Source of the DNA: an uncultured Candidatus Peribacteria bacterium
Lineage (GTDB): Bacteria; Patescibacteriota; Gracilibacteria; BD1-5; UBA2023
DNA: 64,000 bases
Assembly (NCBI GenBank): GCA_964655935.1
Contig: CAZZNY010000001.1
Coordinates: 214,606 to 278,605 of the forward strand
Direction of reading: 5' to 3'
In this document: piece by piece, positions 1-64,000 of the stretch
How the letters are laid out: each line of letters starts with the position of its first letter
Position numbering within the stretch: the stretch's first letter is position 1
Program-made: the position numbers and the translations under genes
The notes under the pieces: model-generated
The model's input: only the letters and a program-made list of their open reading frames with translations
Told to the model about the DNA's origin: nothing
Database searches by the model: none

Positions 1-179
1 GGCGTAGTAAGCTGACGAGTCGTATCTGAGAGTCACCAAAATATAACCACTAATACGAAAACATCAAGCATGAGAATGACAACAAATGAAAGTTTTGATA
101 GTGGCTCTCTCTCGCCAACATGAGTGAGTCGAGATTTAAACTCACCGAAACGAGTTTTAAAAAATGAAAAGAAAGACAT
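1..179 (-). CDS. hypothetical membrane protein, N-terminal fragment (runs off the left edge)
   Basis: Minus-strand ATG at 177-179. It translates MSFFSFFKTRFGEFKSRLTHVGEREPLSKLSFVVILMLDVFVLVVIFWG... and stays open to position 1. One in-frame TGA (33-35). A hydrophobic stretch is present. Confidence 0.3.
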
Positions 180-208
180 GATGTGAGAATTAAGAATTAA
201 GAGTGTTG

Positions 209-1804
209 TTACATATCAAAAAATCAGCCGCAGTAATTATCCTCTGGACATTGAAGTGCTGGCGATAATGATTCTATCTCACGAATTACATGTAGTCGTG
301 AATAATTTAATTCCTGCCATTCATATTTTTTCGATTTTTGATACATACAACAAAGATTTCGTACTATTGAAGTTTTATCCTCAGTCGTTGTTTTTTTATA
401 ATTTACCAGCATCGTATCAACGGCATCGGAAGACAATCATCCGACATATCAAATATCCAAGCGAACCGATCATGAATATTGTTTATTCGTATTATTTATT
501 GCAATATATCATTCAGGATTAATAATATTACAAAATGCAACCGTAACGAGAGAAAGTGAAAATATAAAGAGCAGGAATTTGGATTCTCTGAGAAAGAAAA
601 TTGTTTTATAGAAAAAAAGCAGAAAAGCTACACCCAAGAAAATAATGAAAACATGGGAATAGAATCGTAATTCCGTGAGTCCGTAAGAATTCTCGTATAG
701 CCACAATCGCATGAATGCCGAACCGAGAATACCGAATGTCAGAATTATAAGTAATGAGGAGAGTGATTTAAATATTGTGGAAGTCGACTTCTGATTGTTA
801 TCGTAGAGATATTTATCAGAAAACCAGAGGATCGCAAGTACAATACAAGCGACAACTATAAGTTCAAAAAATCATTTTCTGGCGTACTCAGAATACGTAT
901 ATCACTGCACCGATATCATGGCAGTTCCACTGAATAGATAGGTGAGCTGCAGGGTCATGAAAATACAAAAAAGTACCACAACAGATCAAAGCATAATATT
1001 AATCTCTATACTGTGCATCTCTCATTTCGGTTTGTAATCGACCATATTTGATTCACTAGAGCGAGATTTCTTTATGATAAAAGAAATAAGTCCAAGGAAA
1101 AGCAGAATAAAAAATCAGATATTGATAATTCGTAGTGGAAAATCAGGGGAAAAATTGAAAGTAAACAAATCGGATACATACTTATTGAAAACCATATCAG
1201 CCGAAGAAAATAAAATCAAAAAGACACCAATGGCAGGAAGTGCAAGCAAGATTCATTTTACGATATGGGGAGTAAACTTCTTACCCTCAGAATTATGCTT
1301 GATATATCCAAGGTCACGAATAAATGAGCCAAAACCAAGAATTATACCTGGTACGAATAATCCTACTCTCTGAGTATAGTCTACTAGTTTTAGATTATCG
1401 AGCTTTTCTCGAAATGTGACAATCAGAAGAATAAAAAATGTATATATACAAGCAATCCAATTCATAACCACTAGCCAAATACCAGCACGAATAGCCAACA
1501 TAAGGGAAAATAAGAAAACAATTCAACCAAGGATATAGTGCACTTTGGCCGTCTTGATTCAAAATCTATTGATCAAATAAAAGTATCAAATCAAAAAAGT
1601 AAGCGTAAATATAGGAGCTGAAATACCATAGCTTAATCCATAGAATAGATAGTAATGAAGCAGTCCGAAAACAACACTAAAAATAGCGATGAGCCCGAGC
1701 TCGATTCACTGTAAAGAAGGAACGTATGGGACAGCAGGAACGGATTCTATTTTATTTGGCTCAGCAGTTGCGACTGGAATAATTGGCTCAGTGACTTGTT
1801 CCAT
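209..1804 (-). CDS. polytopic integral membrane protein, function unknown (531 aa)
   Basis: Track ORFs 224-436, 509-712 and 1253-1501 share one minus frame. Every codon 209-1804 was checked and only TGA interrupts. The first real stop is TAA at 209-211. ATG 1802-1804 follows the upstream gene's stop. Many hydrophobic segments. Confidence 0.6.
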
Positions 1805-1831
1805 GTGGTAAAAATTAATATATAGAAATAA

Positions 1832-2962
1832 TTACAGCTTCATCTTCTTTTTATATTCCAGAAAATCCCGAACTCCAATCTCGATGATAGCTGCGACCGG
1901 TACAGCCAAAAGAATACCGAGAACTCCAGCTGTAGAAATCCCTATAGCCATCATGACGAGGACAAAAAGTGGCGAAAGATCTAGAGATTTACTCATTATC
2001 AATGGAACGAGAACTTGTCCTTCGAGTTGCTGGATTCAGATATAGAGAAAAAGTACTACGATAACCGCAATCCAAGAAACACTTCCAGCAAGTGCAAGTG
2101 CCGGGAGAACGGCAAGAAATGGTCCAAAATACGGAACCGACTCAAGAAGACCAGCGAGAAGTGCGAGAGTCGCTTTATTTTCGATAACTATACCAAAAGT
2201 GTGTAGAATCCAAAGTCCGATATATACCAAAAGTGATATAGAGACACTGAGAATGAGCTGTCATTTTATCCAAGAAGAAAGTCGATTCATAATATCCACT
2301 TCCCTATGCGCAAGATAATCAGATAATTTTTTCGGAAGAATATCATAAAATAATGCATAGACATTTTTTCGCTCTATCGCCATAAAAAAAGTAAATACAA
2401 ATGTCGTGGCAATAGAAAATATAATGTTGCTCACGGAAGAGATTACTCCAGCTCATCCAGATGCGATATTTTTAAGATTACCACTTATGGTCGTGCCGAT
2501 GGATCAGATATTCGATCGAAGAAATGCAAACAAATCTTTCCAATCAAGATCTTTTATATAGTTCGTAATGAAATCAGGAAGCCCTAGAGCTGACACACCG
2601 TTCGCTTTATATGATTGTTCGATCAGATTGAACCAAGAAGCAATCGCATGAATGAGTTGACTGATCTGATTCACGAATATCGGAACGATAGAGACGAAAA
2701 TCAGTGTTATCAGACCGAGCAGAATGATATAAATGATAATGATTCCGAGCCAATTGGCGATTCGGTGACGATTACACCAATTCAAAAACGGTGAAAACAA
2801 CATCACAAGAAACGCAGAAAAAGCAAATGCAAGAATCACATGTAGAATGCTGTATGCGAACCAAAGTCCAAGTGCGAAAGCAAGAAGAATGAGGAGTTTT
2901 CAGAGAAAAACTCTATAGGAAGATGGTTCTTTGGATGTTGTTTGGAAGAGGGATTTAAGCAT
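1832..2962 (-). CDS. AI-2E family transporter (PerM/UPF0118-like permease)
   Basis: Track ORFs 2036-2230 and 2504-2839 are in one frame, and the gap 2231-2503 contains only TGA. The motif GLLESVPYFGPFLAVLPA and multiple TM segments are typical of AI-2E permeases. ATG 2960-2962, TAA 1832-1834. Confidence 0.75.
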
Positions 2963-2985
2963 ATGTATTTTATTAAGAATTATAT

Positions 2986-3465
2986 TTATTGTAAGGTGGA
3001 TTCTAAGGTGAGGGAAAAATTTCAAAATCCTTGTTTCTTATAAAAATCTATTGTCTTACTATTCATGGCAGATGCTGTTACTCTAATTCTATTCACTCAT
3101 TTTTCTCGACACCAATCTTTAAAAGCTTTACAAATTAATGTTCAAACTCAAAGTCCACGACATTCTTTGAGGACAAACATATTCTCAAGCTCAGCTATCG
3201 TCATTTGCTCGCGATATTCGCAAGACTCTCAAATACCTCAGACAAGATAACCAACTATTCAATCACCCATTGAAGCTACAAATGCGCAAGAATTGGAATC
3301 CAGAATTTTATCACGAAAATATCTCTCGCCTAACGAAGAAAATGGCCAATTACAAATCAGTGTTTTGTCGAACTCATTGTATTCTTTTTGGAACAGAAGT
3401 GAATTCAAATATTGAATATCGGAAAGATTTTCAATGGTTGCATTCTGAATTATTATTTCTGACAT
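2986..3465 (-). CDS. GNAT family N-acetyltransferase (159 aa)
   Basis: MSEIIIQNATIENL...VLKECRGLGVGTLICKAFKDWCREKGVNRIRVTASAMNSKTIDFYKKQGF. The acetyl-CoA motif R-x-x-G-x-G appears only when TGA is read as Gly. TAA at 2986-2988. Confidence 0.75.
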
Positions 3466-3515
3466 ATTACACTTATGAATGAATAATTTTTTTACAATTT
3501 CTTGATCCAAAAGTA

Positions 3516-3917
3516 CTATTTCATTCCCATATAAATTCCTTCTTTGAATCAATATTTCGCATAAAAACCATTCAGCCAAGGACTACTTGAATCCGGGATC
3601 AGCTTTATGTTTTGTACTGCAAGTTTTCTCACTTGAGTAATAGATTTTTCGATGGTTTTTCCTCCGATTCAATCTTTTCTATATTCTGGATGAACAAAAA
3701 GATTTACAAAAAGCGCTACGAAATATTTATCTGTAATAATTTGATTCGAACCGACAATTTTCTCACCATCAAGCGCAAGAATAATATAATCAGTATTTTT
3801 CAATGATTTAAGAATTTTTTCGGGTCGTTTTTTCGCAGAGTCGAGAAGATCAAGAAGTGAATCTTGATATTTTTTGAGATTTTTCGGAGTGATGATTTTA
3901 TAAATAATTTGTTTCAT
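3516..3917 (-). CDS. GNAT family N-acetyltransferase (133 aa)
   Basis: MKQIIYKIITPKNL...FVHPEYRKDGIGGKTIEKSITQVRKLAVQN...FYAKYGFKE. The Gly after RKD is TGA (3669-3671). TAG at 3516-3518. Confidence 0.7.
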
Positions 3918-4617
3918 ATTGAGATGGTCACCTAAATATATTTTTAACCAAAGAATGTTTTTTATCTGCCACGAGAGCAAGTGCTCAATTCGCTACTTTT
4001 ACACCATCTAAAGTGACACCATTCTCAATCTCATCCATAGTGACAAGGCGAAATGGAGAATATTTCAAAGATAAAAAGAACTGCAATTTATTTAAAATAT
4101 TCTGTGGAAAATCCACATCAAACACCTCAATGAGTTTACGAATATTTTTTATAGTTCCCCAGCCCTTGTCGTCAGAAACCGTGTATGCATATTGAAAAGA
4201 AATATTTGAAAAATCCTTGTGATTAAATAGATAATCCGATATATGCAAAGGCTCCGCATGAAAATATGAACAAACAAGATTATAGACGAGAGAAAGCTCT
4301 TCCGTAAATTCTTCGAAGAATTCTCTTTTTGGGGAATTTTCTCTAGCTATACCTTTTCACAAAAAAAGTTTTTCAAATTCATCATACGAATTGGATTTCA
4401 TCAGAAATCTCATCTCCCCCACCCCTTTAATCCAAGAGATTTCAAATTGTTTTTGAATACTATCTGGTTCGAAAAAATGATAAGCTCAGCCAATCGGAGC
4501 AAAAGCAAAAATTCACCTTTGCAATCAACCATAATTTATACTAAGTAGAAACTTATCGTCTATTATAATCCTGCAAAGTCAGGCACATTCTACGTGTAAA
4601 TCTAAAGATGCATCCAT
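3898..4617 (-). CDS. hypothetical protein (start uncertain: ATG at 4617, 4413 or 4401)
   Basis: The minus frame of track ORF 3985-4248 continues through TGA 3985-3987 to TAA 3898-3900, and upstream to TAG at 4636-4638. No recognisable motif. Confidence 0.4.
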
Positions 4618-4779: not shown

Positions 4780-7700
4780 CTACTTCCTCACCATCGTTCC
4801 AGCTTCAAACTTATCTATCGCTCTTACGAGTACCAGACGAACATAGGAGAAAACCTTTAATTCACGATCGCTTAGATTATTTTGTTCTAAGCGTTTTTCG
4901 AGATATACAGAAATTTTTCTATACATCTGAATCTTATTGTAGAGGTTATCTGTTTTTCGCTCGATCGCTATATTGATTCGTGTAAGATACTTTTGTTCGA
5001 TATATTTTCGGATCTCTTTGCTCAGTGGTTTTGTGGCTGAGAAGTCATATGAATCAAACAATGACTGTTGAGCTGGATCGATTTCCTTGATGAGATCTGG
5101 ATTTTTACCAGTTATTTGTCAGTTTTTCGGTGCATCACAGAGTCCATCGTAGTAGCTCGGTGAATTATCGACTCCATCACACTTATCGACTGTGAGCCAG
5201 ATTCCACTTCATCCGGAAGAAGTGGAAGTTTTATCATACAATACGAATTTCGAGAATTTTTTCGTGTAGATTCCGACTCGATTTGTATCGTAAAACCAAC
5301 AAGATTGTGAAATTTTATTCATATTTTCACATTCTGGCAGATCTTTCGTCGCATTCAAATGGTATGAGACAACTTTCGCAGGTTTTTTCCAGATGTTTTT
5401 CAGAATTATGAGATTGTAATTTTCAAATACAAAAGGCGTAATTTCATCTCAAACTTCGACTCATTCGAAAGGAGTATACCCTTCTAATTTTGGCAAATCT
5501 TTTACGATGAGTAATGGCTTATCAAGCTGGAAATCCCATGGAGAACCGGCATAGATGGTCTGTCCGCTCGCATAACGCACCTCGATGCTTCCATCGCTGC
5601 TATACTGCGCGAGATACGGAGCAAGATCGGTTCGCATTCTGACGATATATCGGATCAGAGTTTCATCGACGAGATAGTTATCGAGAAGATCTTTCACTTT
5701 TCAGAAAATTATCGCATCATTGAGTTCCGCAGCAGAAATAATTTTCAATGGAATACTGGAAGTATCTGGTGCAGAAAGATAAAATACATCAGCTCATACG
5801 GAAGCGTCAGGATCTCATTTTTTGTAGACGGAAATATGATATGAATGATCGCGATATGGATCAGCATTTACATCTTCGAAAACATTCGGACCGGAAGTAG
5901 TATTTTTACAATCAAGAACTTTAAGTCCGTCTCGTACAATATCAAAGCACGTATCTGCAAGATAATTCGTACTAAACTGAACACGCGTATGTTCGCCTGT
6001 TCTTCGAGCTGTCTGATCATAGATTCGAGCTCCGACGAGTGGTAATCGCACGAAACTTTCAGCGATGATATTTCCAGAACCGTCCAGGATAGAACCCGTG
6101 AGATTCAAAGGCAACATTACATCGATATTATCGAGCTGAAGCGCTACATTTCCATTATCTGGAGAAAGAATACTTCCGGTAAGAACTGAACCCGTTCCCT
6201 GAGTTCCAAGCCAAGAGAATGAATATCCGTACTTCCCGAGAGCATTCGTATGAAATCTGAAATTCACCGAAGCGTCCGTCACACTGTAACCACTTGAAGT
6301 CAAGAATGCAGTTTGACCAGTGAGTGATAATTGCTCATTTTTAATAGACTTAAAGTTTCCGTTTTTGGTTCGGTATAATGAAGTCGTATCAATAATATGT
6401 GACTGGAGTGGATCAAGTGACAATGGAGTCACAAGTACTTCGCTTCCAGTGTTCGTCACATGAGAAAGTACTGGTATCGTATCGATATTTGCATCCCAGT
6501 ATATTCAAACAGTATTTCCCGAAAGTGTGAGATTTACCGTGTCAGATCATTGTTTTTCGTAAGTAGATTCTGTCTTTATAAAATCAAGCGTAAATCCAGT
6601 CGAATAACTACCAGAAAGAGCTGGTAAAATCGGGTCGTAAGGTGTGAATTTATAATTTGCACTATTTACGAGTTCGATCGGAGTATCTTGATACGCTCCA
6701 GAATACGTCAGATAGATCGGGAAATAATTCGTGATTCCTGGTCACACCGCTTCTCATTCCGTACCAAGTGCACCAGATTCGCTATAGAGATTTCGTATGA
6801 TAACTTGATTTCCGCTCACTGTGGCATTTTGTGTGAGTGTCGGATTGATAATCACTCAGCTTCAGATATTTACTGTCATAGTAGGATCAAAAGCAATATC
6901 AGTTCCGATATTTTTAAGGAACAACTTCACTTCGACCGTATTCTCCCCTTCTGCAAGTTTCTGAACTTCTAATTGATCATTTTTCGTATTTCAGATAAGT
7001 GCAGATCGATACCAGATATCGAGTTTTGGGCCTTGTGCATATCATTTCAGAGGAATCGTATTTGTTTTCACTTTCGATTTTCCACCGAAATTTGTGAAAT
7101 TTACGCTATCAGAATTCACTACTGGATGTTCACCATCAGTAAGCTCTTCTTTTTTCAGATGTACAAGCACATAGGTTTTTGGAATGATAGATCCACTGGC
7201 GTTTACGTATGGGAATTCAGTGATTCCAGCATTCGCAAAATCAATATGCGCAACCGTGTCAGATCCAGAAGAACTTAAAGCTCAAGAGAATGTACGAAGT
7301 GCAAATCCTGAAGACGAAAGACTCTCGAAAGTTTCTCGAAGTCTTCGGTGTTTATTCGTTCCATCACCAGCTGCCAGTCGCATCTCAGTGACTCATTCTT
7401 CAGTAAGTTCGTATGCGGTATCGAGCGTAAATCCAGAGTCATATGCTATATCTAGACTCACTCCAGTAGAATATCCAGATCGATAAAAAGCTGCATTATT
7501 TGCGTCAGCAAGAGCAAATTTTATATCAGGAAGATTCACTTTTGATGGCCAACCAACTGGATCTTTTCCAGATTCTCACGGAATATTTTGGAAATATTGT
7601 GGATTAATCGAAGCTTTGATGTCATAGATTTTTGCTCGAAGATTCTCTGGAATCAAAGGATCGATCGAAAGATCAAGGAAATAACTTCCCTTAAATCCAT

Positions 7701-10700
7701 CACGAATTGTCGTAACATTTACAAAATCGAAATCGAAGAATGTTCCTGGAGTAAGAATATTCGCATCGGAAGGAGTAATAGTTACGAAAGGTTTGATATC
7801 ATCAGGAATTTCTAGTTTCAAGAAATTATATCTATCGGGTTTCAAAACATTTCTCGCAACTTTCGTGATAAGATCGTTCGCGTTCAATGCTTGATTTCCT
7901 TGAATCGTAAAATCAATACCACCATTTACGTAGGTCACATATTGATTATTGTTCGTATTCGCGACGGTACCGGTACCGAGCATCGCCCAGTCAAAACCGG
8001 AATTATTATAGATATCGAGACGAATGAGCGTTTTATCACCTGGATCAAGAAGTGATTTTGTCGCAGCTTTATTATACGAAGCTCCGACATAGACACTCGC
8101 ACCATAGTTTCCATCTCATCGAGAATCGATATAGATTTCATCTTTCCAAGGACGAGCCGTCTCTTTTCCATGAGTATCCACGAAAAGTTCACCAGGATCT
8201 TTTACGGTATAGAGAAGATATGCGTCTGTCTTATAATTTTTCAGAGTATACGGAATAAGCTCTTTGTCGACTGTAATATCCGAGTTCACGGATTTTACGA
8301 CTGAGACAGGATTATCGACGATCTCGAAAGCATTCGGACCAAAAGCAGGATTCCAATAGACGAATCTTCCACCTTCAATAATCTTTGTGTCACCTTCAAA
8401 AAGTGGCTTGTCAGCAAAAGGCTGAAGTCGATTCACGATATTTAATGCTTCTTTTGCTTCACCACGCAGATTCGAAGCAAAATAGAGCCAAAATGCATCC
8501 TCAGTTTCTACGATATTATTTATTTTCTGGAGATTATTCGGATCAGAATATTTGCTCGCAAAATCATTCGAATTACAAGAATATGTCGAAAGATAATTCG
8601 CGTTCTCATTCTCTTTCTGGATCCACGGAATTATCGGAATAACATTATTTATAAGACTATTCGGACGATACTGATATTTTCCCGGTTTCGAGATTAGTTC
8701 GATCGGATTAAAGAGACACGCGTAGATATTTCATCCTGCAGGTGCAAAATCAAAATCTGACTGTGTAATAAGCGGAGCTTTTACGTAATCACCACCATTA
8801 TAGGAATATGGAATTTTATTAACCTCGTTTTGTCCCGCAAGAAGCGTCACATCACGATTTTGGAGATTTTCTGGCCACCATCATTTTCGGCTTGGATATT
8901 TCCAAGAAGTATATGGTGTGATATTATTTTCGATTTTTCCAGTATTCTGAACCTCATACTGGAGATATCCAGGTTCCTCAGAAAAATATTTCGTCTTGTA
9001 TCCAACTCACCTGTTCATCGGAATCGCGAGAATGTTGTGTGGCAAGTATTTTGCTGGATTCCAGAATTCCTCAGAATGTGGATTCGGAAGCTGATTATCC
9101 ATATGGTAAGGATATCCTTTCGAGTAGACGCTATCGTCATAATCGAAGTGTGTCAGATTCCACATATTATTTTCGACATAATTTTTCGGGAAATAGTTCT
9201 CGACTTCGGGAGAATAATTACGCGCTTTGTCATCGATAAATTCGCCAGATGCAAGACTTACATTTCACTTTCCATTCTCTGCTCTATGAAGCGTCGGAAC
9301 AGAATAATTAGTAAGTCATGAAGCAGTAAGTTCTGCTTGTAATCAAGCTATAAATGCATCATATGCGGATTTTGTATCAAAAAGTCGTACATTTCTAATC
9401 CAATAATTATCGATGGAATCAAGGGTTTTATCTGAAAGTTTATAGTTTGTCTCACCATTGTAACCAGTTACGGTTGTACCGGTTCCATCCCAGCACGTTC
9501 CATACGCTGGTGAAGTCGGATTATCGTTACAAGTGGTCGGATCAAAATATCGTGGATAATTGTTGTAGAGTTTGATATTTTGACGGATTTCGAGTTCCGT
9601 TTCTCCATCCCAAGTTTCTTTTTTATTTCAGGCCTTATCATACATTTCATACGTCGTATTCATCATGAAATTACGAACTGGAGGAGGTAATGGAACCGCT
9701 TCCGGCACGACCGTACGAATCGGAGCCGCAAACTGTCGACCAAAAATATCTTTATAATCCACACGGGCATTTTCTGTCGCAAGTGGAATTATCTGTGATT
9801 TTCCTGTTGTCAGGTATTCACGGAAAGGAATCGGAGAAATACCAAGAACTCCCACATTACCAAACATCGCACTGTCAGCCATAATTCCAGGATCTTTGAT
9901 CGGATGATCTTCGGCTACTCACCAGACCGTTCGGTGGAATGCGAGCTCTTGAATATATGTTCAGAATCGAACCATTGGCTCGAGATTCTCATATTTTCTC
10001 ACGTAACTTTCAGAGAGCGTATTCGTGAAAATGGTTGTTATTGATGTTTTTTGATCTACAGAAAGCTTAGCTTGTGTCATGAGAGAATTCAGTGCGGAAA
10101 TACTACTCGACTTAAAAACAAGCGAATGACTGTAATAATCAGGAACTGTGAAAAGTGCGTTCGTCTGACCTTCCGTGAGACCAATATCGGTAATACTTAC
10201 ATCTTTAATTCGTTTTCGTCGTGGCATCGTGAATGTCATCTTTACTGCTGGAAGTTTGAAGAATGCATATTTTGCAAAATTCACATTCATATCTTGCTCA
10301 TGATCATATCGACTGGAATTCACACTCGAAAGATCGTAGGTCAGAGAATATATTTTAACAGAAATATTTGCTACGTCTTGATCGACTCATTCAAGTGCCA
10401 AACCAACAATAGATTTTAATGATTGTTCATTCGGAAGTTTTCCACGATAAAAGTAGACTCGAGAAGTCTGACCAATTGTCTCAATTTTGTTGATCGCGAT
10501 ATGATCCGCGAGGACATACACTTTCGAAGGATTTACTCCGTCTGGAAGTGTAAATTCCATATATCATCATTTCGGAGTCGAGCGAGGTGGTAAATAAAAA
10601 CTCGCGTAACTTCCTTTTACATATTTGATCGGATACGCTTCGCTTTGGACTCCGTTCTGATCTTTTTGTCCGATATAATTTCCGTCGGCATCGAATCCAT

Positions 10701-13185
10701 CAAGCATCTCTGGTCCTGAAATATTATTTTTCGGATCGATCGGGAAGAGATATTCTGTCTGACTCATTCCTGCTGGAAGATGATCAAAATCGATCTTTTC
10801 ATTAATCCAAGGCAACAGTGCCCCAGATGCATTACAAGCGATCGAATTCGGATACTTCCCGGCGACTACACCATCAGGATAACCGTAGACCCCCGATTCT
10901 TTCGCACAGCTTCCGTATTTATCCATCGAGATATACTGATTCACGCCAGTGATTCCATGTGGAAGTGGGAAAGCTGGATTATTATAGAAATAGACATCTT
11001 GACGAGCAAACAAGAGCTCTTTTTTTGTCGGATATTCGAATACCATACGTCGTGGACTTGCTTTTCTGAAGAGAATATCAGCATCAGGCATAAAAGATTG
11101 CCTCAAGATATTTTTTCCGAGATCTGGAGAAAGCACGCCGGTATGAACATTCGCAAAAGCTTCATCAGCGTCAGTATTCGCTCGATACACCGGCTCGTCA
11201 TAATTATCGACATACTGATATCGATTCGTATTTGGCATATAACTTATCGAGCCACTTGCAAGTTTTGGGATAATATAGTCCTTGCATCGATTTGGGAGTA
11301 TGAGATCGGTCACCGCACAGTTTCACTCGTTTTTAAAAGGATAAAATCCTGTTTTCGTATCTGGATTATAAAGACTGTTATGATAATCTTTCGAGAAAAC
11401 GATTCGAGAAATCAGACGAGCCTGATCACTTTCTTCGAAAAGCGGAGACAAAAGCGGGACACTTACAGTATAATCTACATCATTTGCTTCGGTTGCTGCT
11501 TTATTTTCCGCATTCATAACCTGATCGATATACACTCATTCTCCAGGAAGTGGATAATATCCAGCTGGATCAATATTCAGACTGGTTCGCATGTTTGCGG
11601 ATTCGACCGCATCGATCGTCTGAGCTCACATATTCTGGTGAATTTGCGCGCCGTTTGAGTCAGTATAATCCAGAGTCGTACGAGTAACGACAATATCAAG
11701 ACCAGCTTGAGTGAATGTCGGTTCATCAACTTTTAAACCAAATTTTAGATTCCATTTCTCACTCGAATCGAGTCGAGATCGAGTACAAATAAGCTGACCA
11801 GTAGAAGATCCATACTGACAATCTGCTGGGATCGCCGTGTCAATAAGAAGACCTCCTGTCGCGATATTTATAGTTGCAACCGCATTAGAAACAACACCAT
11901 TAAAAACATTTGTCGCATCCATCGAATATTCGAAGACGAGATTTCGTTCGAGTGCTGGCACAAGATCTTCCCGCACATCAGGATTTGATTTTTGCGCTAC
12001 TTTCGCACTCGTGTAGACTTCCCGTAAGAATGAAAGCGCGATACTATTAAGAGTGTGATTAATGAAAAGTTTATGAGAATTGCTCTGTGGAGAAAAAAGA
12101 CTGTTTCCACCATTATAGACGATGAGTCCATGTCCGTATGGCTTATAAAATGCGCTGATCGCGCTGTCGAGATCCAGCGGCGCATCTTCACTCGTCGTAA
12201 CATCTTGAAAATAATAATTCGCATCATGACTTACATCGAAATATCGGACCGGAACGATCGCTGCATCAGCCAAAGGACGAATATAATAAGATCAAAGCAA
12301 ATATTCATAATATCCGCTTCCAGTTTTCGCGAAATAATTCTTTCCTTCATAAAATCACTGATTCAAAACCTGAGTGTTGAAATCATTACTACTCTGTAAA
12401 AGAAGTTTTCCTTGATTTTCATGATGTTTTACGAGCGTATTGTCATCGACGACTCGATTCGTTAGTTCCATCTTATCAGCAAGTATGAGGCTTTTCGAAG
12501 AAAAATATACCGTTCCTCCATTTTCTACGAAAGACTTAATCTTCGCGATTCCTCCGGATCCAAAATCATCAAGAATCTCACTGTGACGACCAAGAATAAT
12601 ATCTGGGAAAATAATGGTTCCGTATTTTGAGAGATCAGCATCTGGGATCTCAGAAGTTTTTATAACATTCACGTAGGTTCGTTCTGGATTTTTATCGTAT
12701 TCCGTCTTAAAAGTCACATAATTCGGAAGACAAATATTGTTTCAGATTTTTACGAATTTCGCGAGTGAAGCGATAAGAAGATCACAATAATATGGAGCCT
12801 CGTATGTATACCTTCCACTATTCGTTGTCGGAAGATCGACTATAGCGATATTTCCATCATATAGAGCTTTTCCATATCAAAATTGATAATTCGTAACTCC
12901 AGTCGAAGTTACACCGCTATTTTTAAGTTTTGTCGCATCGAGCTCTCGATACCCAGATCAAGATCCCGCTTCGATAAGTGTCGAGGTCGCGATCGGACTT
13001 CGATTCTGAAGAAGATATTTCTGCGTATCATATATCTTTTTCTCAGTAAGCGGAATTTGCGACATTCCATCACTGATGATATTAGTCTTTTCAAAAATAA
13101 TCCCCGCATTTGCAGCCGCAAAGAGAGATCATTCTGAAGAAACGAGAAAGCACAACAAAAGCGCTCAAGCGAGAAGTCTTCGCAT
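4780..13185 (-). CDS. giant secreted/cell-surface protein, 2,801 aa, function unknown
   Basis: Eleven minus-strand track ORFs (4780-5061 through 12355-12717) share one frame. I split all 140 sequence lines into codons and found 41 in-frame TGA and zero TAA/TAG between ATG 13183-13185 and TAG 4780-4782. The N-terminus MRRLLAGALLLCFLVSSEGSLFAAANAG looks like a signal peptide. Alternative ATGs at 13203 and 13212. Confidence 0.85.
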
Positions 13186-15242: not shown

Positions 15243-16561
<1,319 letters not shown>

Positions 16562-16571
<10 letters not shown>

Positions 16572-51618: not shown

Positions 51619-52404
51619 ATGAGCAAGATCAATGATCTAGATCTCACTAACTGGAAAGAACTAGAAGATATCTGGACGGATAGTCTCTGGGTAATTAACG
51701 AACGCGATAAAAAAGGTAAACATTCAAATTTCTATCACGGAAATTTCGTACCACAGATACCAAATCAAATGATAAAAAGATATACAAAAAAATGAGGCTG
51801 GGTGCTTGATATGTTCCTTTGAAGCGCCACAACAGCTATAGAATGTGAAAATCTTGAGAGAAATATCATCTGAATAGATATACAAGAAAATCTTATAGAG
51901 AGAGCTAAAAATCTAATAGTTTCAGATAAAATAGCAAAACATTTTTGAGTCTGAGACAGTGGTAGTAAGAAAATAGCAACAGATATACAGAAAGTTCTTA
52001 AATATCATAAAATCGATTGAGTTGATCTCGTAATGCTTCATCCTCCATACTTTGATATTATCAAATTCAGTGATAAAAAAGAGGATCTCTCAAATACTGA
52101 CTCAATCAATAGTTTTCTAAAACTATTTGGCAAAGTCTTAAAAAATAGTTTTGATTTATTAAAAAAGGGATGATACGCCTGTGTCGTGATAGGAGATAAA
52201 TATCAAAATAGTGAGTGGATTCCTTTATGATTTCAATGTATGTCTGAAGCTCAGAAAGTAGGTTTCAAACTCAAAAGTATCGTTGTAAAAAATATGGAAT
52301 GAAATCGTGGAAAACTCGGAAGTTGATGAATCTGGCGATATAGAGCTCTTAGTAGTGACTATTATATTTTTAAGCATGAGTATATTTTAGTTTTTAAGAA
52401 ATAA
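51619..52404 (+). CDS. SAM-dependent DNA methyltransferase (N6-A/N4-C type, HPPY catalytic motif), 261 aa
   Basis: FVPQIPNQMIKRYTKKGGWVLDMFLGSATTAIEC (motifs X and I), then VMLHPPYFD (motif IV). Frame checked, 13 TGA. Confidence 0.75.
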
Positions 52405-52409
52405 ATAAT

Positions 52410-54119
52410 ATGGATTCTTCTCTCCTACAAACAGAATCAGCAGGTTTTTCTGAAATTCTATGAAACTGAAAAAAATGTTTTGTACCAATTTATCAAAGAG
52501 AATATTCTTGGGAAGAGGAAAATTGGAGTGATCTATGGGATGATATAATATCTTCAGAAAGATATAGTAAAGAACATTATCTGTGAGCAATAGTACTAAT
52601 GAATCGGAGTGATTGACACTATGACTTAATTGACTGACAACAACGTCTTAGTACACTTACTATTTTTACTGCTGCAATAATAAAAAAGCTTGAAGAATTA
52701 GTTTCTTCAAATACAGATTGAGCTGAAAACAAAGAAAGAATAGATGAAATAAAAAGAGATTATATAGGATCAAAGAATAAAATCGATTTGACATATTCAA
52801 GCCATTTAACACTGAGTGAAAATAATAATACTTTCTTTAATACTCATATTATCAATTGAGATATTGTTCGAAATCCTTCACAACTAAAAGATTGAAATAA
52901 ACTTATTTACGATTGTTTACAATTCTTTAAAAGCAAAATTTCTGAATTTTTTCATAATTCAGGCATTGGAACAGATTGATCAAAAATAACAGAATTCCTT
53001 GAAAAAATATTACGCAAATACATGAAGTTTATATTAATCTCAGTCAAAGATGAGTCTAGTGCATACACTGTTTTTGAAACTTTAAATTCTAAATGAGTTT
53101 CACTATCAACAACTGACTTGTTAAAAAATTATATTTTTTCATTATCATCATGATCGATTAATGATCTAAATCATATAAAAATAAAATGGTGAGAATTAAT
53201 AGATAAAATTGGTATGCGTGATTTTCCAGATTTTTTGAGGTACTATATTTGATCATACCAAGATATTCCGGAGAAAAAAAATCTTTATAGAGAAATAAAA
53301 TCAGTTGCAACCGACAAACAACAAGCAATAACATTAATGAATAATCTCTTAAGATATTCGGATATATATTGTGCCTTATTTGATAGTGATGACGAATACT
53401 GGAATGATTTTCCTGAAAATGCAAAAATTAAAGAATATATTAAAACTTTAAAAAGTTTTTGAGTAAAGCAATATATATCAGTATTTTTTTCTTGAATTCT
53501 TAATCTTGATAAAGATGATATCTATAAGCTATTTAATATAATAAAAGTAATTACCTTTAGATATACCACAATTTGATGACAAAACCCTAAAGTTATAGAA
53601 AAAGAATACAACAAAGTAGCAAAACGTATTTTTAGTAAAGAACTAAACACAATTACTTGAATATTTAATTCATTAAAAGATTGAGGAGTGTACCCATGAG
53701 ATGAAATATTTAAATCATATTTTGAAACAAAAATTCTTAAAAGTTGATCTAATAAATCAGTAATACGATACATATTATGAAAAATAGAATGTCACCTATC
53801 TTGAACAAACATAGATTATGATACTTTAACCATAGAACATATTATTCCTGAAAATCCAACAGCACTTTGGAAAACAAGCTATTGAACTACTATATCTGAT
53901 GATATATATAGATTATGAAATTATATTTTACTTGAAAAAGGACTCAACAGCGCTGCGCAAGATAAAATTTTTATGGATAAAAAAAGTATCTACAAAAAAA
54001 GTGTTTATCATCTAAAGGATAAAATTTTAGAGAAAACCAATTGGACACCACAAACATTAAAGGAATATCAAAAATTTCTTTCTTTACAAGCATCGAGTCT
54101 TTGGTCATTACAATATTAA
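52410..54119 (+). CDS. GmrSD-like type IV restriction enzyme (DUF262 + DUF1524), 569 aa
   Basis: FVPIYQREYSWEEENW, IDGQQRLSTL, and C-terminal LTIEHIIPEN...GNYILLEKGLNS. About 25 in-frame TGA. All lines were translated. Confidence 0.8.
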
Positions 54120-54194
54120 AATTGGTACTTATAGTCTGTAGATTTATAGTCGTCATTTCATATAATGGCGACTATATTTTGTTTTATTTACACT

Positions 54195-54395
54195 ATGGAT
54201 ATCAAAACTAAATTCTGAGATCGTGTACGAGACCTTCGTAAGAAACTCTGACTTTCACAAGAAGAGCTTGCCACCAAATGTAAACTTCATCGTACCTACA
54301 TAGGAATTATTGAGCGTTGAGAAAAAAATGTTTGTCTCGAGAATATTGAAATTCTTGCAAAAAATCTTGAAGTTGATATTAAAGATTTATTTTAA
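54195..54395 (+). CDS. XRE-family HTH regulator (C-protein-like), 66 aa
   Basis: MDIKTKFGDRVRDLRKKLGLSQEELATKCKLHRTYIGIIERGEKNVCLENIEILAKNL. Confidence 0.8.
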
Positions 54396-54411
54396 TAAAG
54401 TCATCTCCATT

Positions 54412-55578
54412 ATGGCAAATCACATTTTTACAGTTAATGAGACAACTTTCAAGACTCACTTAAACTACATGTTTGCATGAACAGGAAGCTGAACTTGAGA
54501 TGAATGACAAGAGCACCAATTTTGAGCTCTTACAGATATATTATCTTTACGAGAATGAGATAATATATTGTTTTATGTTGAGAGATATTGATTTTATTGA
54601 GTTTTTAAAGTTAAGAAATTTGATAACGATAATTGCGTATTTTATGAACCCTTAGAAGATCATAAGTATGCTGATAGGTTAAATCGAAAAATATTAACCT
54701 ATCGAGTTTTTATGGATGTAAACGATAAAATCGGTGTTTTTAGGAAATGAATCTCAGAGTGGAACATGATAGAAAATCCAACTAATATCAAAGATTTATC
54801 TATATATAATATACAATGGTCTTGGGTGTTCAAAAAACTAAAATGAAATAGATGATGTTTATCAATACCAGATGATGAGTTCTCAAGTATGGTATCTATA
54901 CTATCTCAAAATAACCACAAACTCCAATCGGGACTTAATTTTGATTTTGACAATGGTATAATAAAACCATTAAATAACCCACAAATAAAATACTGAGATA
55001 TTAAAATCGAAATCACTTATGAGAAAATATATAATTCTCTACAGATCATTCATCAAGAAATTGACTTAAGAAAATTTTTTACCAGTAAAATAGGAAATAC
55101 TGACAGTAATATTTTTAATATCATTATCAATGAAGATGTAAATTTAATATTAAATGAGATTAAATGTTCATTTTGAGATAAAAGTATGGATTTGCTTATA
55201 AGTACAAAAAGTAACGAATGTTACCTAATTGAACTTAAAAATAATTTCGAATATAATGAATCGATTTATGGTCAGCTTTATTGATATTCTAGATGGATAT
55301 CAAGCTACAAAAATTATACAAAAATTTTTCCTATACTTATATTGAGAGCACCAAGAGATGTGACCAATAGAAGATGATCTCAATATTTTAAATACCTTTC
55401 TAATGCCAACAAAGAGAACAATATTACTTCTGATTGGTATAATGAAATCATTACATCGATTAATTCCTGAAGAAATAATTTATTTAAATCATGAGTTGAT
55501 AATTTACAAGAATTAAAAGTGTATTTATTTGACGTAGACGAAAACAATAAAATTACTCAATTTAGTATTTTAAACTAA
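54412..55578 (+). CDS. putative restriction endonuclease: PUA/EVE-like N-domain plus PD-(D/E)xK-like core (388 aa)
   Basis: N-terminal region ILSLREGDNILFYVERYGFYGVFKVKK. C-terminal region DLLISTKSNECYLIELKNN (D...E-x-K). All lines were translated. TAA at 55576-55578. Confidence 0.5.
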
Positions 55579-55581
55579 AAA

Positions 55582-56235
55582 ATGACAAATAATCCATTTA
55601 ATAACTGAACTCAAATCTATAAAATATTTGAAATTTTGTCAGATTTAAACTGGCACTGTTCAGAACATGAGCTTCCAGGAAGTCAGCCAGCAAAAGCTCT
55701 CCAAATGATTCGCCAAGCAGGTTTTGTAATGGAGCAGGTTTGATCAAATTATGAAAAAAGAATATTTTGTGAGATTTGTGGAAGGAAAACCCCACACAGA
55801 AAATTAGTTTCTCTCAAAAAAGAAGAGGTCTCTGTGGAACGAACCAAAACGCTGGATTCAAAACTTAAAGAGAGGATTATTAAATTATTTGAAAATAAAG
55901 ATGCCTTCCTAGCTTATGAACCAACTTGAAGAAAAATAGAAGTTGACCATAGAATTCCCCAGGTAAGATGGACGGATAAAGAAGAAGGCTATATAAATAT
56001 GACAGATGAAGAATTAAAGGAAAAATTCATGTTATTAGTTCGTGAACATAATCTATTGAAAAGTCGAAATTGTGAAAAATGTAAAAGAACTTGAGTTCGT
56101 CAAGAATTTTTATGAATAAACTTTTTTTATGAATGAAATGAGAATTATTTAGAAAAACAATGATGTAAATGATGTGGCTGGTACAACCCGGAAATTTGGC
56201 GCAAATATTTAAATAAAAAAATAACTTGAAAATAA
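55582..56235 (+). CDS. HNH/His-Me finger endonuclease with Zn-binding CxxC pairs (217 aa)
   Basis: CEICGRK...IEVDHRIPQVRW...REHNLLKSRNCEKCKRTG...GCKGCGW. It starts 4 nt after the preceding stop. Confidence 0.65.
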
Positions 56236-56287
56236 TTCAATTTGAATACTATAAGTATCAAAGTATTAAATCACAACCTATAAACCA

Positions 56288-57355
56288 ATGAACTATATTG
56301 GCTCTAAATTGTCACTTTTAGAATTTATCGAACAATGAATCAATTCCATCGTCTGAGCAAGAAATTATACTTTTTCTGATCTCTTCGCTGGTACTGGTAT
56401 TGTTGGTCGTTTTTTCAAGCAAAAATGACACAAAGTAATAGCAAATGATCTACAGTATTACAGTTACGTGTTGAATCGTAATTATATAGGAAACCATACC
56501 GATCTTTATTTTACGAATCTTCTTGATGAAATTCCTGAACTTCTCATATGAAATGTTAATAATTACAAACAGATTATATGCGATTATCTAAATAAACTTC
56601 CAAACAAGTCAGGTTTTATCTATGAAAATTACACACTTTGAGGAACTCAATGAAAAACCTTTGAAAGACAATATTTTAGTGATGAAAATGCGCTCAAGTG
56701 CGATACTATTCGCCAAAAAATCGAGAATTGGAAGTGAAACTGAAAAATAAATGAGGATGAATATTATTTTCTTCTTGCAAGCCTCCTTGAAGCTATCGAT
56801 AAAGTTGCTAACACAGCCTCTGTTTATGGCGCTTTTCTCAAGAAACTTAAAAAATCAGCATCAAAAACACTTAAAGTAGTTCCGGCTGAATATCACTACA
56901 ATGAACAATGACACGATGTATTTAATGAGGATATCAATACTCTTATCGGAAATACGAGTCATGATGTTGTATATCTTGATCCTCCTTATAATCAACGACA
57001 ATATTCTGGAAATTATCATATTCTTGAGACTATCGCAAAATATGATAATCCTGAAATCAGATGAAAAACTTGAATGCGAGACTGTAAGATGCAAAAATCC
57101 TCATATTGTAGCAGAAATGATGTAAAAAAAGCATACCAAGAACTTATTAATAAAATCGATGCAAAATATATTTTCCTGAGTTATAATGATGAATGATTAA
57201 TGACACTGACTGATATAGAAGAAGTAATGTCGTCTCGATGAGACTATGGAGTTTTTAAAAAAGAATATAGAAGATTTAAAGCTGACAAAACAGAAAGTAG
57301 GAATCACAAAAAAGAAAGTGTTATAGAATATCTTCACTATGTAATTATCAAATAA
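56288..57355 (+). CDS. D12-class (Dam-like) N6-adenine DNA methyltransferase (355 aa)
   Basis: MNYIGSKLSLLEFI..., FSDLFAGTGIVG (motif I), VVYLDPPYNQRQYS (motif IV), FLSYNDEG. Frame checked. Confidence 0.8.
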
Positions 57356-57409: not shown

Positions 57410-57872
57410 TGGTGGAGATGGCGAGATTCGAACTCGCGTCTTGAGAGGCCACCCGGCAATGTACTACTATCATAGACCATTCATTGTACTCATAATTATA
57501 GGAAATGGACAAGAGAAATTATGAGAAATATCTTATATACTATGTCTGTTCAAGATACTTACGAACGATAGACAAAGATGAAAAGCGGATACAAGAACGG
57601 TAATTTTTCATGACTCCGGTCAGGTTTGCGATCAGGCCATCTGGCACATCCCACCGAAGCAGGAAATCGCGTTTTACTTAAGCTAAACCACTTAATTAAT
57701 TAAGCAGCGAGAGCAAAAGAAGGAGTAGCAGTTCGGAGTTTTCCGAAAGCACGACCGAGAACAGAATTGTTTGCATGTATATGCGACCGTATTTGATTGC
57801 GGAAGCTACGGACAGCTCCCGGATAGCATTGACGAATGACTGGATCTCTCAATAGAATCCAAGATCATCCCC
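57410..57872 (-). ncRNA. ssrA: tmRNA (ssrA), about 463 nt
   Basis: The 5' GGGGATG pairs with the 3' CATCTCC-ACCA, giving a G3:U wobble. The T-arm is GCGAGTTCGAATCTCGC. The tag frame GCA AAC AAT ... GCT CTC GCT GCT TAA (57774-57700) encodes ANNSVLGRAFGKLRTATPSFALAA. Confidence 0.9.
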
Positions 57873-59367: not shown

Positions 59368-59449
59368 ACCCGCGTTGTACTTATCACGATTGCGTGAAGA
59401 ATGTCGGTAAGTGCGGGTTTTTTAGTATCTAAAAACCTTTTTTGCGTTT

Positions 59450-62400
59450 ATGCCAAAGAAAAAGGAATCCCAGATCTCCCAAGAAGCACCATCTAACAGC
59501 GACATTGGTTCGCTCTATGATATTCAGGGGAGACATTTTTTTACTCACGATAAATCTCCGATTGATATGCCGAGTCTCATCGAGATTCAGTTAGATTCAT
59601 ACCGTGGTTTTCTTGAGACACGACTACAGAAAGCCTTTGAGGAGGTATTCCCTATCTCAGATTTTTCTGGAGAAAAAATTACCATTCATTACAAATGAAT
59701 GAACATTGATGAACCAAAATATACCATCAATGATTGTAAACGAAAAAATCTCAATTTTGAAGCTCCTCTTAAGGTTCGCCTCGAGATGCTCAACAAAGAG
59801 ACTGGTGAAATCAAGGAACAAGACGTCTACATGGGAGGAATCCCACTTATGACGACTCAGGGTACTTTTGTTATCAATGGTATCGAACGAGTTATCGTAA
59901 ATCAGATCATCCGATCTACGGGTATGTACTTCTCTCCAGATAGCAAAAATGCCGGAATGTTCATGATGAAAGTCGTTCCACATAAAGGTAGCTGGTTCGA
60001 GATCGAACTCGAAAAGAAAGGAGTTATAAATGTAAAAATCGATAAAAAACGAAAAGTGCCTATTACGGTTCTTCTTCGAGCTTATGGATATGAAAATGAT
60101 GCGGATATCATCAAGGCTTTCGGAAAAAATAAAGACATCATCGCAAAATATATCGCTCCAACTCTCGAGAAAGACAAGACGAAAACTCGAATCGAAGCAC
60201 TCCACGCCATCTACAAGCTTCTGAGACCAGGAGATCTTGCGACTGATGAGCGAGTAGCTGATCTTTTCACGACTACTTTCTTTGATATCAAGAAATTCGA
60301 TCTCGGAGAAATCGCTCGAATCAAAATTAACAGAAAACTCGGAAGTACTATTCCTTATGAAGAAGAAGGACGATTCCTTCGTGGTGAAGATCTCGTAAAT
60401 GGTCTTCAGTACTTATTAAATCTCAATGAAAAAGAAGATGGATTCGAGGGTGACGATATCGACCACCTCGCAAACAGGCGTGTTCGATCTGTCGGTGAAC
60501 TCGTCTATGAGAAGATCAAGGTTGGTCTTGCTCGAATGGAAAAAATCGCTAAAGACCGAATGACGATCGTAGAACTCGAAGATGCTACTCCAGGTACATT
60601 CATCAATTCTCGACCAATCATCGCTGTACTGAAAGAGTTTTTCTCTTCATCTCAGCTTTCTCAGTTTATGGATCAGACGAACCCGCTCTCTGAACTTGCT
60701 CATAAGCGTATCATCTCAGCTCTCGGGCCCGGAGGTCTTACACGAGAACGAGCCAGCTTCGAAGTTCGTGACGTACATCCTACTCAGTACGGTCGTATCT
60801 GTCCGATCGCGACTCCAGAAGGACCGAATATCGGTCTCGTACTTCAGCTTTCTTCCTATGCTAAGGTAGATAAATACGGATTTCTCTGTACTCCATACCG
60901 AAAAGTATTTACAACTATCGTAAATGATGGAACTTCTCCTGTCGGACGAATAGCAATCCAAGACATTACCGATGCCAAAGGAAAAGTTATCGTAGCAGAA
61001 AAAGAATACATCACAGAAAAACAAGCAACTGAATTAAAAAAGAGTTATGCGGAAAAACATATCGCAGTCCGAGCTTTCGTGCTCGAAGGTGCACAAAGTG
61101 TAGAATACGTAGATGCTGGTGAAGAACGAAAATATACTATTGCTGAAGCAAATACTGCTATGGACGAGCATGGGAACTTTCTCGAGACTCGTATCTCTTC
61201 TCGACGTCACTCAGAACCAGGAATCCAGTACGTACAAGAAATCACTCATATCGATATCTCTCCAAAACAGATCATGTCGATTCTTACCTCCCTTGTTCCA
61301 TTCGTAGAACACGATCCTGCAACACGTGCAGAAATGGCGTCAAATATGATGAAACAAGCAGTTCCTCTCGTACGATCAGAAGCTCCGATCGTCGGTACTG
61401 GTACTGAACGAGTTATCGGTGAAGATTCAGGTTATGTTGTCAAAGCAACTGAAGATGGAAATGTTATCGGAGTCGATGCAAAACACGTTTCTGTACTCTA
61501 CAAGTCAGGTAAAAAAGCGACGTACGAACTCTCTACATTCGAAAGATCTAATCATGATTTCTGGATTCACCAACGACCGCTTGTCTCTACTGGACAAAAA
61601 TTCGATGCTGGAACTATTCTTATCGATGGACAAGGAATCGAAAATGGTGAGCTCGCTCTCGGAAAAAATCTCCTCGTAGCATATATGCCATGGGAAGGTT
61701 TCAACTTCGAGGACTCAATCGTTATCAATTCTCGACTGATCGAAGATGATGTCTATACATCAGTTCATATTAGTGAATATACACTCGACGTTCGTGAGAC
61801 CAAACTCGGTCCCGAGCAAACTACAAACGACATCCCAAATGTCAGCGCTAGTAAACTCAAAGACCTTGATGAAGATGGTATCATCCGAATCGGTGCTCAA
61901 GTTCGTGCTACTGATATCCTCGTCGGTAAAGTTACTCCAAAAGGAGAAGTAGAACTTCTTCCTGAAGAACGACTCCTCCGAGCAATCTTTGGTGAAAAAT
62001 CTAAAGATGTAAAAGATTCATCTCTCACACTTCCAGCTGGTTCTGGAGGAAAAGTAATCGGAATTCATATTCTGAAAGCTGAAAACGGAGATAATCTCCC
62101 AACTGGAGTATTCAAACAAATCAAAGTATATGTTGCTCAGACTCGAAAGATCGAAGTCGGAGACAAGATGGCTGGACGACACGGAAACAAAGGTATCGTC
62201 TCACGAATCGTTCCTGCTCAAGATATGCCATTCACTGCAGACGGACGAAGTGTAGATATCGTCTTGAATCCACTCTGAGTTGTTTCTCGTATGAACATCG
62301 GACAGATTCTCGAGGCTCACCTTGGTGCAGCAGCGAAAAAACTTAACATCCAAGTAGCAACTCCGATCCTCAATGGTCTCACTATTGAACAGATTAACGA

Positions 62401-62989
62401 TCTTATGATCAAAGCAGGTCTTCCAATCGATGGAAAAATGCAATTGTTCGATGGACGAACCGGAGAATCATTCAAGGAAACTACTATGGTCGGTATTACC
62501 TATATGCTCAAACTTCACCATCTCGTAGAGGACAAGATCCATGCGCGATCTGTCGGACCTTACTCAATCATTACTCAACAGCCGCTCGGAGGTAAAGCTC
62601 AAAACTGAGGTCAGCGTCTCGGAGAAATGGAAGTATGGGCTCTCGAATGATACGGTGCTGCAAATATCCTCCAAGAAATGATTACGATCAAATCTGATGA
62701 TATCAATGGACGAACACAAAGTTATGAAGCAATCGTCAAAGGAAAGCGAATCCGACGACCTGGTATTCCAGAATCATTCAATGTACTTCTCCGTGAACTA
62801 CAAGCTCTCAATCTCAATATCAACCTGCTCGATGCAGATGATGTAAAACGAATCCAAGATATTATGCTCGTGAGATATGCAGAACTTGAAAAACTCGAAG
62901 GACAATATGATATAGAAACGGAAGAGCTTCCAGAATGAGGAGTAGATTATTCTTCTCCAGTCGTAACTGATGAGCTTATCGAAGAATAA
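59450..62989 (+). CDS. rpoB: DNA-directed RNA polymerase beta subunit (1,179 aa)
   Basis: Four track ORFs are in frame. TGA 62276-62278 falls in [19 protein letters not shown] 62606-62608 falls in [20 protein letters not shown]. Both positions are conserved Gly in bacterial RpoB. TAA at 62987-62989. Confidence 0.95.
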
Positions 62990-63010
62990 AGTTGTAATAA
63001 AGCTGAATCT

Positions 63011-63042
63011 GTCATCCTGAAAATATAAACACTCAAGATGAC
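63011..63042. repeat. GTCATCCTGA...TCAAGATGAC inverted repeat in the rpoB-rpoC spacer
   Basis: 10-bp arms with 1 mismatch and a 12-nt loop. Confidence 0.7.
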
Positions 63043-63057
63043 ATTCTCAGTATTTGA

Positions 63058-63085
63058 CTTTAAACTTTAAACTTTAAACTTTAAA
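63058..63085. repeat. four tandem CTTTAAA units, 13 nt upstream of the rpoC ATG
   Basis: Four perfect 7-mers. Confidence 0.8.
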
Positions 63086-63097
63086 CTTATTCTTCGC

Positions 63098-64000
63098 ATG
63101 TTTGACAAGAACTTTGAAAAATTTCTCAACGATAAAATCGTTGATTACGGTCAAATTGGAAAATTTGCCGGAAAAAGAGATATCACTGTCGGAAAAACTC
63201 TCGACAATATGGCCGGTATTTCTGTAGGACTCGCTTCGAAAGAACAAGTCCGATCACTCTCATATGGTGAAGTACTCATCTCTGAGACTATTAACTACCG
63301 AACTCAGCGACCAGAACGAGGAGGACTCTTCTGTGAACAAATTTTCGGTCCACGAAAAAATTATGAATGTGCTTGTGGAAAATACAAGCGAATTAAATAT
63401 AAAGGAATTATCTGTGAACGATGTGGTGTAGAAGTTACGACTTCTCAGGTACGACGAGCGCGAGCTGGTCATATCGAGCTTGCTGCTCCGGTCGCACACA
63501 TCTGGTACCTAAAGTCTATTCCTTCTCGAATCGGTCTTCTTCTCGATATTTCTATCAAGAAACTTGAACAGGTTATCTACTTCGCTTCATATCTCATCAC
63601 TGATGTCTATGAAGATAAACGACAAGATGGTCTTCGAGATCTTGAAAATATCTATAAAACAAGCAAAATCGATCTTCAGAAACGAATCCAGAATCAAGTA
63701 AATGATGCTCAATTGAAACTTGAAGCAAAAGAAATTTCAAAAGAGGAATTCAAGACACTCGAAACAACCGTTACTAAACAACTCGATACTCTTGATGTTG
63801 ATTTTAACCGAATCAAGAATCTCTTAAAAACACTCAAAGAAGGAATCGTTATCGGAGAGCTCGATTACCGAATTCTCTATGACAAATTCCCACACATCTT
63901 CCGTGGAGGATCTGGAGCTGAATATGTAAAGATTCTTCTCGAACGAATCGATCTCAAAAAATTCATCGCTGAAAACCAAAAAGAGCTCAAAGTAGCTCCA
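63098..64000 (+). CDS. rpoC: DNA-directed RNA polymerase beta' subunit, 5' part (runs off the right edge)
   Basis: Zn finger [25 protein letters not shown], then [32 protein letters not shown]. The frame is open to position 64000. Confidence 0.95.

Follow-up and report, generated by a model that had tools for sequence, protein, structure and literature searches.

The 64-kb window analysed here, meaning the whole stretch of DNA presented above (contig CAZZNY010000001.1; 37% GC), almost certainly comes from the chromosome of a Gracilibacteria (BD1-5)-type bacterium belonging to the candidate phyla radiation (CPR), one that uses NCBI translation table 25. As part of this reading, and with the same high degree of confidence, UGA is taken to be an ordinary glycine codon, and UAA and UAG alone to terminate translation. 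UGA is read through within almost every gene of the window, and the residue that it stands for is Gly and not Trp. A first-pass annotation, made from the sequence alone, had proposed the same code, and its central claim is borne out by the analyses described below. The recoding is already known, and is expected in a Gracilibacteria-like genome; the value of the finding is practical rather than conceptual, in that annotation of the window must use table 25.

The reading frames of the window depend strongly on the set of stop codons applied. Under the standard set of three stops, the longest open reading frames (ORFs) are 859 and 733 amino acids (aa) long and the remainder are of about 300 aa or less, while with TAA and TAG as the sole stops the longest frames reach 2,838, 1,187 and 1,105 codons. 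The fraction of the window covered by ORFs of at least 150 aa accordingly rises from 31% to 93%, compared with a shift of 0.01-0.09 between the two stop sets in seven control loci that use the standard code (0.01-0.04 in six of these). When ORFs delimited by TAA/TAG are picked greedily, they tile 92% of the window, and curation of this set retained 44 credible coding sequences (CDS) occupying 89% of it. In-frame TGA is present in 40 of the 44, with a total of 373 TGA codons, which would make up 27% of all Gly codons in the window if TGA encodes Gly. All complete CDS terminate with TAA or TAG, as the first-pass annotation had stated for the genes that it re-joined.

Many of these genes match known families in their full extent once the TGA codons are read. 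Pfam profiles run end to end across TGAs in DUF4153, AI-2E, HI0933, YicC, YgjP, ArsP (profile positions 1-294 of 294), DUF1861, Tex and GmrSD. Protein lengths likewise fit those of homologues, with 442 aa for the HI0933-like flavoprotein (about 415-430 aa in homologues), 569 aa for GmrSD (564-572 aa) and 1,179 aa for RpoB (1,181-1,192 aa), so that the length comparison proposed in the first-pass annotation agrees with table 25. The longest frame of the window, on the minus strand, extends from stop to stop over 4780-13296 (2,839 codons, 42 TGA). From its first ATG it encodes a giant protein of 2,810 aa (4780-13212, minus strand) with 41 TGA and no TAA or TAG; the earlier count of TGA codons was correct, and the earlier length of 2,801 codons is replaced by this figure.

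Retention of the standard code, with the genes being pseudogenes or fragmented by an error-ridden assembly, would account for the effect of table 11, which splits the 44 genes into 417 pieces. However, the frames are broken by TGA only, never by TAA or TAG, and a frame of 2,839 codons free of TAA and TAG is far beyond chance, since its probability from base composition is P ~1e-63. Moreover, the TGA codons prefer Gly columns in alignments, the essential genes rpoB and engB also carry them, and the same genes are present in independent assemblies from other sequencing runs, with related genomes showing the same pattern. This explanation is already refuted and is extremely improbable, and the apparent fragmentation is an artefact of the standard code, as the first-pass annotation had argued.

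Coding density alone does not distinguish table 25 from table 4, in which UGA encodes Trp. The identity of the residue was examined by coding TGA as X in the translations, which leaves the searches unbiased, and by then reading the homologue residue at each X. In ten genes, 46 of the 86 alignable TGA codons lie on Gly in homologues and none lies on Trp. A Codetta-style log-odds calculation over 40 columns gives +23.9 bits for Gly, -97.5 bits for Ser as the next best residue and -147 bits for Trp; as controls, TGG was assigned to Trp, GGN to Gly, and Arg and Lys were recovered from their own codons. In columns at least 80% conserved, TGA stands opposite Gly in 16 of 22 cases, and TGG stands opposite Trp in 14 of 15, indicating that conserved Trp is written with TGG. 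Reading TGA as Gly gives the proteins of the 44 CDS a content of 7.4% Gly and 0.8% Trp, compared with 5.4% Gly and an implausible 2.8% Trp if it is read as Trp. Trp would further displace the invariant Gly residues of Walker A, LSGGQ, GxSxG and the RpoB motif NPLGV. In favour of table 4, apart from its equal coding density, a public protein collection contains this genome's HI0933-like protein (entry P0001; gene 15243-16571, minus strand) with a truncated start and Trp at all 12 of its TGA sites. The table-4 reading is already refuted by the column test, and we consider it very unlikely, in agreement with the earlier statement that code 4 does not fit these columns. Table 25 passes every test run and table 4 passes none.

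The seven TGA codons for which the first-pass annotation gave coordinates were all found in frame and within the motifs described. Two of these are in rpoB (59450-62989, plus strand; 1,179 aa, five TGA), where the TGAs at 62276-62278 and 62606-62608 occupy Gly columns that are invariant across bacteria. The others are the prepilin -1 residue at 19451-19453 (NNRS-X-FTLVELIVV), two residues of a patatin-like phospholipase at 25895-25897 (LALGG-X-AARG) and 25985-25987 (GTSM-X-S), the ABC signature at 36392-36394 on the complement (KLSG-X-QRQR), and the residue following CPY at 13952 (SYCPY-X-LQ). The claim that TGA falls exactly on invariant Gly holds for about half of the alignable TGA codons and not for all.

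Alignment of RpoB with solved polymerases and with 66 rpoB loci places two of the five aligned TGAs on invariant Gly. At aa 1067 the residue opposite TGA is Gly or Ala, at aa 83 it is Gly in 35 related loci and Ser or Asp in outgroups, and at aa 1163 the column is variable; two of these TGAs, in columns with a Gly majority among related genomes, were kept out of the Gly count. Tex (32903-34987, minus strand; 10 TGA) compared with Pseudomonas aeruginosa Tex has seven of 10 TGAs on Gly and the others on Asp, Asn and Glu, and the single TGA of the EngB/YsxC GTPase (35124-35729, minus strand) falls in a column that holds Asp, Ala or Pro in solved EngB proteins. The residue tabulation that the first-pass annotation had suggested for these three proteins favours Gly in Tex and at the two RpoB sites, and does not do so in EngB. 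In the HI0933-like flavoprotein (13 TGA), aligned with 119 homologues, seven of 11 aligned TGAs lie on columns with at least 94% Gly and four on variable columns, with two more in insertions. The ABC exporter (36080-37879, minus strand; permease plus ATPase, 10 TGA) aligns with Arabidopsis ABCB19 such that six of nine TGAs lie on Gly, including Walker A and LSGGQ, and the others on Ala, Asp and Lys. The patatin-like phospholipase (25796-26641, plus strand; nine TGA) compared with PlpD has five of eight aligned TGAs on Gly, including both cited motifs, with Val, Ser and Arg at the others. In the DUF1861 protein (46138-47103, minus strand; four TGA), which resembles mannoside phosphorylase, both TGAs that align with Leishmania MPT proteins are on Gly.

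The GmrSD-type restriction enzyme (52410-54119, plus strand), both domains of which are matched by Pfam, contains 25 TGA and only seven GGN codons. Against 120 homologues, mostly from Bacteroidota, seven of 24 aligned TGAs lie on columns with at least 90% Gly; two further TGAs on columns with a Gly plurality were left out of the count of 46 in 86, and the conserved Trp columns are all TGG. The fibrinogen-like domain of a pilin fusion protein (19427-20737, plus strand; 29 TGA in the gene) was compared with human ficolin-1 and -2. Nine of its 15 aligned TGAs are on Gly and the others on Asp, Glu, Ala, Thr, Asn and Ala, fewer than the approximately 20 fibrinogen-domain Gly residues that had been attributed to TGA, and all five query Trp residues are encoded by TGG, each opposite Trp in the ficolins.

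Several observations weigh against assignment of UGA to Gly. Of the alignable TGAs, about half are on variable or non-Gly columns. Some TGA columns of GmrSD are conserved as Ser (120 of 120 homologues) or Lys (111 of 120), and others as Phe or Pro; the GGN codons of this gene behave like its TGAs, with a mean Gly frequency of 0.28 against 0.32. It is also possible that some of the homologue sequences themselves stem from code-25 genomes, and the comparisons free of this contamination are those with PDB proteins, Bacteroidota homologues and outgroups. Finally, no tRNA gene is present within the 64-kb window.

The TGA at 13952-13954 requires separate consideration, as it lies in a CP[YF]G motif of a thioredoxin-fold protein (13541-14515, plus strand). 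Thioredoxin-fold selenoproteins can carry CxxU motifs, and selenocysteine might be encoded by UGA at this site, at other sites or throughout. The Pfam profiles Thioredoxin_4 and GILT score Cys above Gly at this position, and a PDB search with the protein gave no usable alignment across the CPY-X motif. Real homologues of this protein, however, have CP[YF]G at the site, the last residue being Gly in 139 of 149 sequences, and the RNA downstream of 13952 shows no advantage in folding over shuffled sequence (z = -0.18), so that no fold resembling a selenocysteine insertion sequence is indicated. Both selenocysteine and Cys were rejected for this site on these grounds. The 373 UGA codons are, in addition, far too numerous for selenocysteine, and the TGA columns are Gly rather than Cys, making selenocysteine an extraordinarily unlikely explanation.

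Reading of UGA as Gly is also supported by the relatives of the window. Across 66 aligned rpoB genes, nearly all from loci labelled Gracilibacteria or another CPR group, 1,145 TGA codons were found, 77% of them opposite Gly, compared with a Gly background of 6.6%. TGA and GGN thus swap as synonyms within the clade, and the rpoB alignment is direct evidence of this. In another BD1-5 bacterium, proteomics detected 97 peptides specific to translation of UGA as Gly and three specific to Trp (PMC4032931). The N-terminal part of RpoC (63098-64000, plus strand), which runs off the window and contains no TGA, has its best matches, at 76-77% identity, in metagenome-assembled genomes (MAGs) labelled Candidatus Gracilibacteria, the clade placement being drawn from best hits and not from a tree. 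The loci of the closest Gracilibacteria MAGs show the same gain in coding density with TGA as sense, as do those labelled Peribacteria among the RpoC matches. With no more than 76-77% identity in the RpoC N-terminus to the closest species-representative genome, the organism probably represents an undescribed lineage inside the clade.

The first-pass annotation had left the choice between a Gracilibacteria-type and an Absconditabacteria-type organism, and the Arg codons bear on this point. CGA is the commonest Arg codon of the window (309 copies, 160 per 10,000 codons) and is opposite Arg in 21 of 25 conserved columns. CGA is an ordinary Arg codon, and therefore the extra reassignment of Absconditabacteria is absent for this codon. 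CGG is rare (23 copies, 12 per 10,000 codons, seven of them in one gene); the sole CGG on a conserved column, at aa 158 of the DUF1861 protein, is opposite Arg, and another is opposite Tyr or His. Since CGA is common and lies on Arg columns, codon usage indicates that the organism is Gracilibacteria-like and not Absconditabacteria-like, with plain table 25.

For the mechanism of decoding, the inference comes from published studies of the clade (PMC8629427, PMC4032931, bioRxiv 10.64898/2026.05.24.727570) and not from this genome. A dedicated tRNA-Gly whose anticodon is UCA, and which carries the usual glycine identity elements, would decode UGA, and release factor 2 would have been lost, leaving UGA without a competitor; AT mutation pressure would then convert GGN to TGA. 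The identity elements reported for tRNA-Gly(UCA) are G1:C72, C2:G71, G3:C70 and U73 (PMC8629427), and loss of release factor 2 is described as characteristic of recoded lineages (bioRxiv 10.64898/2026.05.24.727570). No prfB-like gene is present among the 44 CDS of the window, 64 kb being too little to establish its absence from the genome. A scan for tRNA(UCA) in 60 related loci gave one match, in a distant relative (L038), and none in the closest relatives. L038 is a related Gracilibacteria MAG with 62% RpoC identity to the window and 33 TGA in its own rpoB, and its tRNA (18702-18777, plus strand) has the anticodon UCA, the acceptor stem GCGAGGG/CCCUCGC, U73 and an encoded CCA, in accordance with the PMC8629427 criteria for tRNA-Gly(UCA). 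The gene is located about 8.7 kb downstream of the rpoC start and was labelled tRNA-SeC by ARAGORN. No tRNA is found at this position in the relatives closest to the window, and as none of them gave a match, synteny offers no route to the corresponding tRNA of this genome.

It has also to be considered whether UGA, while mainly Gly, is decoded ambiguously, with low-level incorporation of Trp or other residues or with occasional termination near gene ends. The BD1-5 proteomics also detected a small number of peptides with Trp, Ala, Asp or Lys at UGA (PMC4032931), and wobble of U34 between UGA and UGG has been named as a risk (PMC8629427). In the window, TGA is avoided in rpoB (5% of Gly codons) and rpoC (0%). 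This avoidance is equally explained by the higher GC content of these genes, as the TGA share of Gly codons drops with rising gene GC (Spearman -0.74, 40 genes), and no sequence feature demands ambiguous decoding, which we consider very unlikely.

Use of TGA as a Gly codon is uneven across the window, ranging from 0-5% of Gly codons in rpoB and rpoC and 4-9% in zinc-finger and DEAD-box genes to over 50% in AT-rich genes. One extreme is a 7TMR-DISM histidine kinase (49206-51275, plus strand; 689 aa), the sole long gene without TGA. All of its 41 Gly codons are GGN (P ~3e-6), and it accounts for seven of the 23 CGG codons in the window. Relatives of the kinase are found in non-CPR bacteria (Holophaga, Thermomonas, Marinobacter), none being labelled Gracilibacteria, and an independent assembly has the same junction with the next gene. 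The kinase gene has probably been acquired recently from a donor with the standard code. The other extreme is an AT-rich defence island (51619-57355, plus strand; 25-30% GC), which comprises an N6/N4 methylase, GmrSD, an unknown gene, an IceA-like nuclease and a Dam-like methylase, and in which TGA accounts for 52-78% of Gly codons. The nearest relatives of its GmrSD are from Bacteroidota, at about 40% identity. The 3' end of the tmRNA was searched for as an att-type repeat at the island's borders, and no such repeat was found. Possibly, the uneven use of TGA records gene traffic over the code boundary, although we advance this only tentatively. If so, code 25 would block the export of genes and not their import, and the TGA share of a gene could serve as a clock of its residence time in the recoded genome.

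The defence island abuts the 3' end of a tmRNA gene (57410-57872, minus strand), which was matched by Rfam with 86 bits and was not called by ARAGORN. Its tag frame, ANNSVLGRAFGKLRTATPSFALAA, closes with TAA, and TAA then follows in both other frames. An ORF at 57459-57686, inside the tmRNA, was rejected as spurious.

The pilin fusion protein consists of a type IV pilin N-terminal motif joined to a ficolin-like fibrinogen C-terminal domain (Pfam E = 1e-51; human ficolin-1 E = 2e-54). The fusion looks like a 'modular pilin' (a concept described in PMC8179133) with a lectin-type module, which is perhaps used for attachment to host cells. The adjacent gene (17819-19417, plus strand; 14 TGA) encodes a second pilin-like protein with an N_methyl motif, in which position -1 is Ala and not Gly. 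A 1,043-aa surface protein (42940-46071, plus strand) combines an ice-binding-like domain (Pfam E = 5e-62) with S-layer homology repeats at its C-terminus. The giant 2,810-aa protein has a hydrophobic segment at its N-terminus and gave no Pfam match.

Other genes with in-frame TGA include those for a DUF4153 membrane protein (209-1804, minus strand; 15 TGA), with profile positions 4-370 of 373 matched across the TGAs, an AI-2E family transporter (1832-2962, minus strand; five TGA) with a full-length profile match, a YicC-like endoribonuclease (20766-21641, plus strand; six TGA) with both domains full-length, a DEAD-box helicase with an Arg/Gly-rich tail (22646-24577, minus strand; four TGA) and a YgjP-like metallopeptidase (31006-31650, plus strand; five TGA) matched over profile positions 3-206 of 207. 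Two GNAT acetyltransferases are encoded on the minus strand. The first (2986-3465; seven TGA) has two TGAs within the R-G-L-G-V-G motif that the first-pass annotation had cited, which lies near 3159, and the second (3516-3917; two TGA) has one within its R-x-x-G-x-G motif. A plus-strand ORF at 3138-3935, which overlaps both genes, was dismissed as spurious.

Annotation with table 4 would be wrong as well, since it writes Trp into invariant glycines. Stray Trp residues in otherwise invariant Gly columns occur in the homologue sets of three unrelated families, and for this reason it is suggested that translation of code-25 genomes with table 4 is widespread.

Campbell et al. 2013 and Rinke et al. 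2013 (as cited in PMC8629427) were the first to report that UGA is reassigned to Gly, and proteomics provided confirmation in 2014 (PMC4032931). With table 25, the Candidate Division SR1 and Gracilibacteria code, the window shares in-frame UGA throughout and on Gly columns, and UAA and UAG as the sole stops. With the organisms that use this table it shares a low GC content, closest genomes that are Candidatus Gracilibacteria MAGs, and a relative, L038, that has a tRNA(UCA) with Gly identity elements. In Absconditabacteria (SR1), CGA and CGG are predicted to be reassigned to Trp (PMC8629427). This variant has in common with the window UGA as Gly and the rarity of CGG, and differs in that CGA is here the commonest Arg codon and lies on conserved Arg columns. 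Table 4, found in Mycoplasmatales and insect endosymbionts, involves capture of the same codon in low-GC, reduced genomes with the same gain in coding density, but the residue in the window is Gly and not Trp. From table 25 itself, the window shows no difference in kind.

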